Shown in pieces: positions 8,033 to 63,301 of a stretch of 64,000 nucleotides of DNA. The position numbers were made by a program, and so were the translations under genes. The number at the start of each line of letters is the position of its first letter. Position 1 is the first letter of the stretch. This DNA is from Octopus vulgaris (taxonomy: Eukaryota). A model generated the notes under the pieces. It saw only the letters and a program-made list of their open reading frames with translations. It was not told the DNA's origin and ran no database searches. The DNA lies in the NCBI GenBank assembly GCA_951406725.2, contig OX597833.1, forward strand, positions 50,840,001 through 50,904,000, in the 5' to 3' direction.

Positions 8033-9758
8033 TACAAAATTAGAGAATGGAGAAACATACTTAAATCAGTAAAACATCAACTATCCGATGATACTCAATC
8101 CATACTTTAATACACCATTACATATGAGTAAAGGCAATATATAAAATGAAATGAGATATAAAGTAATAGTAAAAAGATAAAGAGATATAAGTAAAAAATT
8201 TCAAATATAATATGCAAATAAATCAAAACTGACAGCTGTTTCGGCAGTGAGGACAGTCATACCTCATTTAACCTATAAGCCATAAAGGCAGGTATAAATG
8301 AGGCATTAACAAGGATGCCCCACGGCCTCTTCAGAGAATTAAATTAAATTTGTTATAATAGTGAAAAATATTATATAATCATATACATATAAATATAAAA
8401 ATATAAAAATGTAAAATATAAAAACTTATACATCATAATGCTACACTTATATAATATAATACACATTTGTACAAAAAGGAAGGTAAACAGAACAAAATAA
8501 AACAAAATATATAACAGTGTATATATTAATATTAATAAGTACCGATATTATACATATTTGGCTAATAGTTTTTTTTATAAAAAAAAAAAAGGCTAACACA
8601 TATGGAGATGAAAAATAATAATTAAATCCGTGGTACAGTTCATAAAATTCTAAAGCTATAAAAGTTAATAAAAATTACTATTAATAATAATAATAATAAT
8701 AATAATAATAATAATAATAATAATAATAATAATAATAAAAATAATAAAAATAGATACAGTTAAGTTAGCACCAAGTCCATCCTTTCAAGATCGAAATAAC
8801 TATAGTTATTTCGATCTTGAAAGGATGGACTTGGTGCTAACTTAACTGTATCTATTTTTATTATTTTTTTATTATTATTATTATTATTATTATTATTATT
8901 ATTATTATTATTATTATTATTATTATTATTATTATTATTAATAGTAATTTTTATTAACTTTTATAGCTTTAGAATTTTATGAACTGTACCACGGATTTAA
9001 TTATTATTTTTCATCTCCATATGTGTTAGCCTTTTTTTTTTATAAAAAAAACTATTAGCCAAATATGTATAATATCGGTACTTATTAATATTAATATATA
9101 CACTGTTATATATTTTGTTTTATTTTGTTCTGTTTACCTTCCTTTTTGTACAAATGTGTATCATATTATATAAGTGTAGCATTATGATGTATAAGTTTTT
9201 ATATTTTACATTTTTATATTTTTATATTTATATGTATATGATTATATAATATTTTTCACTATTATAACAAATTTAATTTAATTCTCTGAAGAGGCCGTGG
9301 GGCATCCTTGTTAATGCCTCATTTATACCTGCCTTTATGGCTTATAGGTTAAATGAGGTATGACTGTCCTCACTGCCGAAACAGCTGTCAGTTTTGATTT
9401 ATTTGCATATTATATTTGAAATTTTTTACTTATATCTCTTTATCTTTTTACTATTACTTTATATCTCATTTCATTTTATATATTGCCTTTACTCATATGT
9501 AATGGTGTATTAAAGTATGGATTGAGTATCATCGGATAGTTGATGTTTTACTGATTTAAGTATGTTTCTCCATTCTCTAATTTTGTAGTATTAATTTACA
9601 GGTAATATTATTACCTTTACCCATTTAATACAATAGATGAACTGATTGCTTGACAATTTCTAACATCTATGTATTAATTTTGTTGGGTACCTATCTAGCA
9701 GTATATTGGATATATATTATCCCATGGTGGGTTGAATTTTCAACCCCTATCTCATTTT
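8033..9758. mobile_element. 1.55-kb near-perfect palindrome (8033-9587) plus a 171-bp unpaired tail, inserted in (TA)n; Penelope-like pLTR architecture
   Basis: Arms 8033-8802 and 8803-9587 are reverse complements with no loop (centre GAAATAACTA|TAGTTATTTC). The differences I saw are (TAA)n and homopolymer lengths plus a substitution. (TA)n lies on both sides. Confidence 0.85.
9276..9400 (+). ncRNA. Type I hammerhead ribozyme-like motif with long stem II (mirror copy on minus strand at 8221-8340)
   Basis: CTGAAGA (9286-9292), stem II GGCCGTGGGG..CCTCACTGCC with inner GCCTCATTTA/TAAATGAGGT, GAAA (9378-9381), palindromic CAGCTG, GTC triplet (9387-9389). Stem I is weak. Confidence 0.7.
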
Positions 9759-12252
9759 ATATATATATATATATATATATATATAAACTTAGATAAACTT
9801 AGATATGTTTCGACCAGAGATTGGTCCAGGCCATGTCTAACTTAATAGCACCACCTGATAGTATTATTCGAATCCTGTTTAAGTCAAGTTTTGTTCAAGT
9901 AGTGAGTTCTTGTTGGGTGAGTTGTATCCAGTTTTGTTCAAGTAGTGAGTTCTTGATGTATATATATATATATACATATATATTTGTATATATTTAAGTA
10001 TATTAAGTTACGTCCCTGTAACTTAGCGGTTCAGCAAAAGAGATTGATAGAAGGACCAAGCTTACAAAGAATAAGTCCTGGAGTCGTGTGTGTGTATATG
10101 TATACATTTACGTATTTATGTATTTAAATGGAATAAATATAAAAATTATTCTCTTATATGGTTTTTGCGCAGACTGGTTGATAAATTCTTATATAGATAT
10201 TTTCCTATATTAAATTTTCAATACATGCTTAAATATATATGTATGCATACATAAACATATGTATATTGGTATAAATTAATATCCCTAATAACATACAACA
10301 GAAGATATGCGCATTTTTATAACTATATAAGATAGTTGAAATTCACCTAAGATTAACATGTAAGATCAATACATACATACATGCATACATACATACATAC
10401 ATACATACACACACACACACATACATGTATATATATATATATATATATATATATATGTACACACATGTACTTTTGCATGTATACATATACATCTATGATT
10501 GCATCTGTGTATTTATGCATATATCATGCAGCTCATGCATACAGTGTAATTGGTGAAAGTAATATGGCGAACCTACATACATATACACATAGGCACACAA
10601 CCAATTTCAGTTACGTACGCTTATCTCCCCATATTCATGAACGAAGCATCCTAGGGCGACCTGCTGGCATCGTTCGGTTACACAAGAAACCTAATGCTAA
10701 ATACATGCATGCATACACAGACGTATATATACACACACACGCACTTACTCACAGATATGTTTCTGTATGTGTGCTTATGTATGTATATGTATGTATTTAT
10801 ATGTATGTATGCATATATGTATGTATACATATGTATATGTATGTATATGTTTGTATTTATGTATTTATGTTTGAATATATATGTACGTATATATGTATGT
10901 ATATGTATGTATATATATGTATATGTATTTATATGTTTGCATTTATGTATTTATGTATTTATGTATGTATATTGCCATTGACTGTCATCAATTTGAAGAA
11001 CTGAACTTTCTTGGAAATGTTCTCGAATATATACCAATTCCATTGATTCTAATCTGCATCAATTCGACGTGAGCTCTGACATTTCTATTTTCTCTAAAGC
11101 ACACATCAACCTATTTTAGCGATTCATTGATATTTTTATAAATTACTTGTTTGCTTCAATCTTCGTTGCTTTCTTTAGTTACTTTATCATTTCAAGTTAA
11201 GTTTGGTTCAGACCCTGCCTTGCATTTCAAAAACAGTGTCCAGCTATCGTATTGTGTTGTACAGAAGGGATTTCTTGGCGAAAATATCCCTACCATATTA
11301 TATGTAGTCTTTTATCCTGTATATAAAATATATGCGTCACACACACACACACAAACGTATACATACAGGCACATAAGAACACGCAGAGTATATACACATA
11401 CTTACACATATATGTGAATACTCACACACACACACACACATATATATATAAGTGTATACATCTATAGCTATATAGCTATTATATATGTGTATATATTTAT
11501 ATATATATATATATATATATATATATATATATATATATATATATATATATATATAGCTATTATATATGTATACATGTGTGTGTGTACACATGTTATATAT
11601 ATACATGCATACAGGTGTGTGTATGAGTGTGCACGCAGCGCGCGTGTGTGTTGTTCAAAATAGTTTCGTTCGGATTCTGTGCTATTTCAGGTTTCGAAGG
11701 CCGTTCAAACTTGAACTAGCACGGAATCCAAAACAAACTTTGTTTGCTACAATACTTGTAAATCCTAATCAATGTGGTGAGTGCCCTTCCTTTCGTTTGT
11801 CCATATATATACAATCGCAAACACAGACACAAACAAACACACAAACTCACACAAAAACACACACTCTCTCTCTCTCTCTCTCTCTCTCGCACACACATAC
11901 ACACAGACTCACACATATACATATATAAAGTTATTATCGCAGCTATATACGAACAGATATCAAACTCTGCTTGTAACAGGCCCATTTTAGGATCGTGTTC
12001 TCAGCGCAGTAGTTGGGGCAAACTTCATCTGCTATATGATAGACTTGACCAGTTATACTTTGCGAATGGAATTTATTGGGAGAAAACTGCGCGGAACAGC
12101 TTTTTAAGATGCACTATATCATGTACATTGTTATTCAGTTAGCAAAAGAAAAACCCCACAAGAAATGATGTTTTAAGACACATAAAGTAGACTTTTTTTT
12201 TACGAGTATTAGAAATTTTGTCTATAAAATTTTAATCATTATAATCTTGTCT

Positions 12253-12545
12253 GCGGAGGCGCAATGGCCCAGTGGTTAGGGCAGCGGAGTCGCGGTCGGA
12301 GGATAGCGCTTTCGATTCCCAGAGCGAAAATACCTAAAACTCCACGAGGCTCCGGCAGGGTGTGGTGGCGACTTCTATTGTACTCTTTCGCCCCAACTTT
12401 CTCTCACTCTCTCTTCCTGTTTCTCGGGGAACGCTGCGATGGACTGACATCCTGTCCACCTGGGGGGAACACATACGCCACAGAAACCGGGAAACCGGTC
12501 CCATGAGCCTGGCTAGGCTTCAAAAGGGCGCATCAAAAAGTAACT
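12253..12545 (+). mobile_element. SINE family C (tRNA-derived head), tail type 1
   Basis: GGAGGCGCAATGGCCCAGTGGTTAGGGCAGCGG..TTCGATTCCC head; 11-bp TSD TAATCTTGTCT at 12242-12252 and 12546-12556. Confidence 0.9.
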
Positions 12546-62399: not shown

Positions 62400-62450
62400 A
62401 GCTTCCTGAAGATTTCTCTTGAATGAAACAGTACTAGTCCTGTAGAAGCT
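62400..62450 (+). ncRNA. Compact type I hammerhead-like motif at the start of a (TA)n-flanked insert (62400-62537)
   Basis: Stem I AGCTTC/GAAGCT (6 bp), CTGAAGA (62406-62412), stem II TTC-TCTT-GAA with a T.T closing pair, GAAA (62425-62428), stem III CAG/CTG with loop TACTAGTC, GTA triplet (62442-62444). Confidence 0.75.
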
Positions 62451-63301
62451 CCTTCTATATAATAAATTAATTTTACTCTGCTATGTATTGAGTACCTTAC
62501 TTACTGTGGTTAACCCCGAATCAACCCGGGAACTACATATATATATATATATATATCTTTCTTTCTTTCACCATTTCTACACCTCCCTCTTCTGTCTCCT
62601 ATCAATTTTTTTTATCTCCTTTCTTTTTCCCCTCCCAATCTATCATCACAAATCTCTCCTTCCTCTATTTTATCTTTACCACTATCTCCATCTCAATATA
62701 ACATTTTCTCCTTATTTTCTTCTCACCCATTTCGCCATTATCTCATACCTGTCTATCTGTCTCTACGACACTCGACTCGCATCTCCACCACACATCTACA
62801 AACGCAATACATATCTAACAACATAGGTATATGACAGTCACTCAGCAACCATCAGAAAATGCCACAAAACCCTTTAGGGAAAACTGATATATAAAATATA
62901 TTTTATTTACTTCGCGTATAAATGAGAAAGCAAAAATGCACCGCCATAAAACCTCCTACATGATAAGTCAGGGTATCAAGTCTCACGTTCAAAAGAAAAC
63001 TAAGTTAATCCAGGACGTGTTATCTATGGAATCAACGAAAGGTTTTTTCCTATTTCGGGTCCCCATTTTGTAGCATTCTTTGGTTATATCACACAAACAC
63101 ACATTGACGGCTATGCGTCTATATATATATATATATATATATATACACTGTACATCATCTCTAAACCTTCCAATATATATATATATATATATATATATAT
63201 ATATATATACATATATATATATACATATATATATATATATATATATATATGTATGATGTGTGTGTGTGTGTGTGTGTGTGTGTGTGTGTGTGTGTGTGTG
63301 T

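Follow-up and report, generated by a model that had tools for sequence, protein, structure and literature searches.

What are the self-complementary inserts, several of them bearing hammerhead ribozyme motifs, that interrupt the (TA)n microsatellites of a 64,000-nt stretch of the Octopus vulgaris genome (contig OX597833.1, positions 50,840,001 to 50,904,000; the window in what follows), and by which route may they have arrived there? A sequence-only reading had grouped them as a diverse set of derivatives of Penelope-like elements or retrozyme-like elements. The window, which has a G+C content of 35% and is rich in microsatellites, contains no host-gene-like open reading frame (ORF) among those of 95 or more aa, exons not having been searched for, and its inserts were compared with the whole assembly (2.8 Gb, 227 contigs). 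Very probably, five of the six inserts studied are 5'-truncated 3' ends, or pseudo-long terminal repeats (pLTRs), of Penelope-like retrotransposons with Hydra-type motifs, an origin established for the families called A, D and E below and likely for B and C, while the sixth, F, probably represents a protein-free unit that the enzymes of such elements mobilize. The Penelope-like origin of the earlier proposal is retained; the five families are not separate non-coding derivatives, and the term retrozyme-like fits F only.

Each insert is one copy of a multi-copy family, namely A (starting at 8033), B (36628), E (53199), C (54320), F (56421) and D (62399). First-look searches of the genome returned 2,561 places for A, 1,850 for C, 1,512 for F, 844 for E, 613 for D and 394 for B; these are candidates and not copy numbers, 40 being scored per search and 30 loci fetched. 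Family loci were viewed with 1.5 kb of flank, for the best 30 loci per search. Identity of the best copies to the window copy reaches 100% for D and 99% for A and E, and lies at 91-95% for C and F (92-95% among the C copies) and at 71-82% for the relatives of B. Sequence comparison found no DNA similarity between the six families outside coding regions, simple repeats excepted. Their hammerheads are of type I, with a conserved core and three helices, open at stem I.

The assignment is carried by larger copies elsewhere in the assembly, in which the inserts are linked to coding sequence. The family A insertion (8033..9757, + strand) consists of the 5'-truncated 3' end of a Hydra-type element (approximately 8797-9757) and of a tail-less inverted copy of it (8033-8808), with (TA)n on either side. 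The window copy is 98% identical to the last 0.96 kb of an element encoding reverse transcriptase (RT) and GIY-YIG endonuclease (EN) in one locus (L125). A frame for RT, GIY-YIG or both is present in five of nine larger regions (L121, L122, L123, L125, L128), lying upstream on the same strand in L125 and L128. The unpaired tail of the insertion (9588..9757, +; about 165-170 nt) continues into the ORF of the next unit in L003 and L121, in the latter a related one. Family A ORFs carry long Asn-rich inserts between RT and endonuclease, and sister ORFs, 80-89% identical, were observed beside A copies (L121, L122, L125).

Family D is represented by a 138-nt pLTR end (62399..62536, +) with (TA)n on either side and a short-stem hammerhead (core 62406-62444), of which 100% identical copies exist; complete pLTR-ORF-pLTR units, with hammerheads 5.2 kb apart, were found in three loci (L130, L131, L132). 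The family E fragment (53199..53458, +) is a fold-back truncated downstream of the hammerhead, in which a palindrome is followed by a tail of 73-87 nt; in L137 this tail leads into an ORF that shares 40-51% identity with the A and D ORFs and of which only the RT falls within the flank. Family C is a pLTR fragment (54320..54578, +), for which the C-terminus of a Hydra-type EN, and only that end, lies 1 kb upstream on the same strand in L035. Family B is an old pLTR fragment (36628..36884, +) with a 60-nt inverted arm (36628-36687); in L235 its pLTR is followed by an inserted repeat and then by decayed Hydra-type RT and EN. Extension of the families to ORFs combining RT and GIY-YIG, suggested as a check on the initial proposal, was obtained for A and D, with the RT for E, decayed remains for B and the EN end for C. 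The links point to 5'-truncated ends of protein-coding Hydra-type elements in five of the six families, firmly for A, D and E and more weakly for C and B.

The order of domains, with RT followed by a C-terminal GIY-YIG, is seen in A and D and, decayed, in B. The RWK and DKT motifs read IRWR and SDKT in A and D, and IKWK and SDKT in E, against DKG in a neighboring Neptune-like control. Linker and endonuclease contain CNCRNKNKC, CSLC and CIH in A, CNCHDKTTC, CDLC and CMH in D, and CxxC with CxH in B and C, and no CCHH was seen in them. By eye, the family D protein follows the published Hydra alignment closely. As described for the Hydra clade, the hammerheads are located in the pLTR and insertion occurs in (TA)n, and the notion that Penelope-like elements carry hammerheads in their pLTRs is supported. 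Directly behind one family A copy and its TA run, an open Neptune-like ORF of 775 aa matching RVT_1 and GIY-YIG was noticed (L128:3278-5602, - strand).

Family F has a different build. Its window fragment (56421..56635, +), a palindrome followed by a tail of about 99 nt, derives from a 451-nt unit containing one hammerhead, in which no ORF was found. Two hammerheads lie 452 nt apart in three loci (L176, L182, L185), and 30 of 30 unit-joint loci hold only head-to-tail unit pieces, typically 1.0-1.8 units. The 3' ends concentrate around positions 260, 274 and 359 of the unit, and TA often comes next; inverted arms are frequent, and relatives about 70% alike share the same build. No continuous ORF link was found for F in the loci examined. 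Since it is a tandem non-coding unit with no such link, F works like a non-LTR retrozyme, being head-to-tail, non-coding and provided with a type I hammerhead, with a unit longer than the 170-400 nt of that class. Judged from these arrangements and from the Penelope-like insertion footprint that it bears, F is likely to be a retrozyme that encodes no protein and depends on Penelope-like enzymes for its movement. Two sets of neighbors were considered as coding partners and rejected: a (TA)n run separates L269 from the Hydra-type EN found upstream, which is a distinct element, and TA runs likewise stand between L165 and L167 and the Neptune-like ORFs beside them.

Alternatively, F could serve as the pLTR of an autonomous element, the coding copies of that element having been lost or having fallen outside the sample, and the F tandems could be pLTR-pLTR duplications. 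This is unlikely, though the most viable of the other explanations: the sampling covered the best 30 loci per search with 1.5 kb of flank, and Penelope-like ORFs do occur beside some F loci. Those ORFs, however, are separated from F by (TA)n runs or lie on the other strand, and the subfamilies about 70% alike have unit pieces, not an ORF, upstream.

The association with (TA)n holds well beyond the window. The three layouts of the type (TA)n-palindrome-tail-(TA)n noted in the window are real, at 8035-9585 (97%; 8033-9587 for the palindrome of the family A insertion), 53199-53371 (97%) and 56421-56534 (83%), and the tail-less inverted copies proposed with them are borne out. When window copies are left out, a run of (TA)5 or longer starts no more than 30 nt from the 3' end in 28 of 29 loci for A, 27 for E, 26 for D, 24 for C, 17 for F and 8 for B, against a background of 4-15% at random places in the same loci. 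The proposed (TA)n targeting is supported. Most of the misses in C, D and F continue in element sequence. Among loci selected by hammerhead pattern, (TA)5 or longer occurs within 300 nt downstream in 15 of 30 (background 18%), and among CCATGG-pattern loci TA is found within 400 nt in 22 of 30 (background 36%). Inverted arms were detected in 8 of 29 loci for A, 9 for D, 17 for E and 10 for F, with five irregular arms in C. The tails are fixed within each family and span 67-165 nt overall: 158-165 nt in seven of the eight inverted A copies (206 nt in the other), 66-75 nt in eight copies of D, 73-78 nt in E and 77-103 nt in seven copies of F. In D, the 5' end lies within approximately 20 nt of the stem I start in 8 of 30 loci (L061-L090), a hot spot of 5' truncation and fold-back, the fold-back often occurring at an AAGCTT palindrome.

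The elements might instead insert anywhere in A+T-rich DNA, with (TA)n growing afterwards from the cut end or by selection. In favor of this, the ends are ragged, 0-10 extra element bases preceding the TA, and in the old family B only 8 of 29 copies show it. Identical young copies nevertheless have long (TA)n on both sides, the run beyond the arm being present in 8 of 8 inverted copies of A, 9 of 9 of D and 16 of 17 of E, and this makes later growth of the repeat quite improbable. Penelope-like families were also seen to pile up in the same TA runs (L128, and L015, L135, L165). In the window, an A+T-rich insert between TA runs (30038-30310), whose start resembles the end of the family E inverted arm (77% over 83 nt), probably represents a further related family, to judge from that similarity.

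By analogy with other Penelope-like elements, insertion of truncated ends into (TA)n may be envisaged as follows. The GIY-YIG endonuclease would nick (TA)n on both strands, and reverse transcription would begin at two positions within the RNA, the segment that they enclose becoming the tail. Reverse transcription would mostly stop early, and the two cDNAs would join head to head; two starts combined with such joining would give the order (TA)n-arm-arm-tail-(TA)n. Tandem or read-through transcripts are probably cleaved by the hammerhead, acting either as a dimer through its palindromic stem III or with the help of protein, and most genomic copies would be passive and decaying. The task of the hammerhead is the least certain part of this scheme. 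Minimal pLTR hammerheads cleave weakly and as dimers, and co-folding favors stem III dimers by 7-12 kcal/mol.

That the inserts are independent non-coding retrozyme-like elements replicating as small circular RNAs holds in form for F, as set out above, and in one run (X15) the hammerhead end of D is 20- to several hundred-fold deeper than its ORF. Applied to all inserts, this explanation is very improbable, being already refuted for A, D and E, which continue into Hydra-type ORFs, as B and C probably do. An excess of short ends is also what 5' truncation gives. In the presumed-RNA runs, the contigs mirror those of a DNA-like run, and they are therefore uninformative on transcription.

Several points weigh against an origin from Hydra-type elements as formulated here. 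In the assembly, the ORFs of A and D shift frame at C runs; for D, the contigs of all 4 runs contain an additional C at that place, for which reason an unbroken D ORF probably exists. The units are long, with a 5.2-kb repeat in D and about 5-6 kb, including a 2.6-kb 3' region, in A, whereas Hydra elements are given as 'generally <3 kb'. A Pfam search detected neither an RT nor a GIY-YIG family in the A and D proteins, and placement in the Hydra clade draws on motifs and on the by-eye alignment match, not on a tree. The ORF links of B and C come from one locus each, that of B being broken by another repeat. The TA counts by family come from the 30 loci most similar to a window copy, and this copy has TA at its own end. 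Finally, the hammerhead of the anole Poseidon element PAc needs protein and was not needed for insertion in vitro (Frangieh et al. 2024, PMC11167929).

The hammerheads themselves were evaluated at two scales. The four CTGANGA cores of the sequence-only reading were found at their positions (9286, 36778, 54450 and 62406). A relaxed type I descriptor matched these four, the mirror copy in the inverted arm of A at 8334(-) and a site at 5985(-), six matches in the window against 0.13-0.33 in 300 local dinucleotide shuffles, none of which reached six. The descriptor had been loosened after a stricter one, with four unbroken stem I pairs and a paired stem II base, gave no match in the window, and this shuffle test is accordingly post hoc. 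The match at 5985(-), with one of four pairs at the base of stem II, was taken as chance. Genome-wide counts with a reversed-pattern control are the cleaner test: CTGAWGA followed after 40-70 nt by GAAACAGCTGTH has 2,553 exact matches versus none for the reversed pattern, the same pattern with a 9-39 nt spacer has 2,331 versus 2, and the CCATGG form with a 30-60 nt spacer has 303 versus 2. That the palindromes are assembly artefacts or miniature inverted-repeat transposable elements (MITEs), and the hammerheads chance matches, has a negligible probability. Long-read fold-back chimeras do exist and the window test was tuned after the fact, but the counts of 2,553 versus 0 and 2,331 versus 2 and the fixed tail lengths speak otherwise. 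So do short-read contigs, in which the inversion joint of D is present together with its two joints to TA (loose ends at 1502, 1563-1569 and 1642), so that these are not long-read artefacts. Most of the first 100 short-spacer CAGCTG hammerheads listed belong to a large family with a stem II of intermediate length (about 21 nt, GGGATAT...ATATCCC).

Window copies differ in their state of preservation. The family A hammerhead (9278..9397, +) has 85 nt between the core halves, the stem III palindrome CAGCTG and a predicted cut after 9389, and is mirrored in the inverted arm (8223..8342, -). The core CTGANGA..GAAA..GTH ascribed to all four sites holds for the others and fails at 54450, in family C, which reads GAAT (core 54450-54529, 61-nt spacer, stem III CGATCG). 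The pairing ascribed to the stems breaks down at 36778, in family B (core 36778-36851), where the base of the long stem II pairs at only one of four positions and the fold is no better than shuffles (z +1.05). Both sites are damaged copies. The ACTAGT at 62406 is present, located in the loop of a 3-bp stem III. Intact hammerheads were found in 30 of 30 copies of A and D, 22 of 30 of C (core and stem III) and 11 of 30 of B, and 22 of 30 loci of E have a hammerhead. Against shuffles, the long stems of A (z -4.0) and C (z -2.4) give good folds, and the small D hammerhead gives z -0.7. The window fragments of E and F contain no hammerhead, the members of these families having one 85 nt (E, a short one) and about 135 nt (F) further upstream. 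No hammerhead family was among the best 150 of 384 Rfam matches, which are microRNA matches driven by microsatellites.

In three families the core halves are unusually far apart, at 85 nt in A, 55 in B and 61 in C. Covariation was assessed on 30 loci taken by pattern alone and falling into 15 clusters, where the second position of stem I is C-G in 12, A-T in 7 and T-A in 4. With one locus per cluster, stem I forms 3.0 of 4 pairs, as opposed to 2.15 when partners are exchanged (p at most 0.004); at the base of stem II, 3.9 of 5 pairs form, versus 3.3 (p at most 0.03). A z below -1.5 is reached by only 10 of the 30 long stems, in keeping with decay of the copies. Hydra-type protein matches lie near 4 of the 30 long-stem loci and Neptune-like protein near none. 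For the CCATGG form, 24 of 30 loci were used; one inverted duplicate was set aside, as were five loci of another family or of excessive divergence. Pairing is retained in 92.7% of cells, and both partners have changed in six pairs, of which two belong to the distal part of the long stem (C-G in 12 and U-A in 7 for each). Double-change cells number 43 versus 21 in shuffles, but the number of pairs showing them does not exceed the shuffled value, and the changes may represent few events in subfamily founders. Within family B, covariation is not above shuffles on four of five measures. The covariation initially perceived is therefore real between families and between F subfamilies, and does not extend to the copies of family B.

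These data suggest, tentatively and at somewhat less than even chances, that the F lineage is a long-lived parasite of Hydra-type enzymes with the full insertion footprint and, at the same time, that the long stem II is a functional module, either a binding site for the element's protein or a cleavage switch, kept by compensatory change both in coding families and in non-coding ones and new for these ribozymes. If so, the F footprint would be sequence-level evidence for the partnership of retrozymes and Penelope-like elements that has been proposed, and F allows the role of Penelope-like enzymes in moving retrozymes to be tested directly. Family D appears young, with identical copies, complete units and probably an unbroken ORF, and could supply a Hydra-clade enzyme for tests of (TA)n recognition and of the two-start model, which for this family predicts a distance of about 70 nt between the starts. 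Descriptors built for short stems miss the long-stem hammerheads, so that ribozyme counts in such genomes are too low; two narrow patterns alone give approximately 4,900 exact matches here.

The window holds further repeats. A tail fragment related to family D (54208..54281, +; 84% identical to the D 3' end) lies between (TA)n runs, and a possible decayed hammerhead 3' half with GAAA, CAGCTG and TC (55313..55370, -) lies beside (TA)n; no family was found for it, a DNA search returning this copy alone. A 184-198 nt unit resembling short interspersed nuclear elements (SINEs) forms head-to-tail arrays at 15958-16323, 28770-29517 and 34864-35422. This unit often starts right after (TA)n (L138, L146), contains no CTGANGA and may be another passenger of Penelope-like enzymes. 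A near-perfect G+C-rich hairpin with arms of about 55 nt (45021-45167) is either MITE-like or another fold-back insert. A repeat containing CTGAAGAAAATTC occurs at 32400-33100 (-), 43466 (+) and 43677 (+), two copies lying right after or near (TAA)n, and no hammerhead 3' half was found in it; the minus-strand region resembles the end of a Dong/R4-type non-LTR element. At 49177-49767 lies a Mariner-like remnant, in which a 99-aa frame similar to a transposase C-terminus is enclosed by 52-nt inverted repeats.

How does the system compare with those already known? In the cephalopod literature searched, it was found only in Craig et al. 2021 (PMC8557442), which lists hammerhead-bearing Hydra elements that target (TA)n, among them Hydra-1_Obim of Octopus bimaculoides. 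The supposed novelty of microsatellite targeting in this lineage falls with that listing. The octopus families agree with the Hydra clade as presented there in the C-terminal GIY-YIG, the RWK-like, DKT, CxCX5C, CxxC and CxH motifs, the type I hammerhead near the 3' end, the (TA)n target, the inverted 5'-truncated copy and, in D and E, the T..T pair at the base of stem II common to most listed Hydra hammerheads. They differ in that the listed hammerheads have about 12-26 nt between core halves, versus 85, 55 and 61 in A, B and C, in units of 5-6 kb versus generally less than 3 kb, and in tails of 67-165 nt versus the 30-40 bp reported for the inverted-copy layout; family-specific tails this long were not found described in the literature searched. 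One octopus family with 4 copies is given in that source, compared with at least five families and hundreds to thousands of candidate places here. A 2026 octopus repeat annotation counts 31 recently active Penelope-like families, and the words 'ribozyme' and 'hydra' are absent from its main text.

The long stem II was said at the outset to lack a known description in this lineage, and the literature searched, of incomplete coverage and with possibly relevant 2017 work outside it, likewise contained none for the Hydra clade. Spike-moss PLE-X entries in Craig et al. 2021 (PMC8557442) include long loop II forms, so that long forms are not without precedent. The published set of type I hammerheads shares the palindromic stem III, the unpaired base after position 9, the prevalence of lone truncated copies, the opposite-strand pairs 100-700 bp apart and the family-level covariation; its helix II is 6-8 bp, while an interrupted stem of up to about 35 bp is found here. 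For PAc, Frangieh et al. 2024 (PMC11167929) showed that the tail is delimited by two points at which reverse transcription begins, and the two internal starts, the A+T-rich target and the cutting of both strands agree with the scheme above; PAc belongs to another clade, has a tail of 30-40 nt and targets ATT rather than (TA)n.

Family F is closest to the non-LTR retrozymes of Cervera and de la Pena 2020 (PMC7229834), likewise non-coding, head-to-tail, of low G+C and with one type I hammerhead, the described units being 170-400 nt as against 451 nt, and F arrays being mostly under two units. Non-autonomous head-to-tail Chlamys elements (Craig et al. 2021, PMC8557442) provide a precedent. Residence in (TA)n with tail-less inverted arms is a footprint not found in the retrozyme descriptions consulted in PMC7229834 and in the preprint of Li, Clavereau and Pollet 2026 (10.64898/2026.07.22.740005), where a retrozyme-Penelope partnership is proposed from distribution and pLTR homology; F fits that proposal. 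The system as a whole is known, and the long conserved stem II, the longer tails and family F are what appears to be new.

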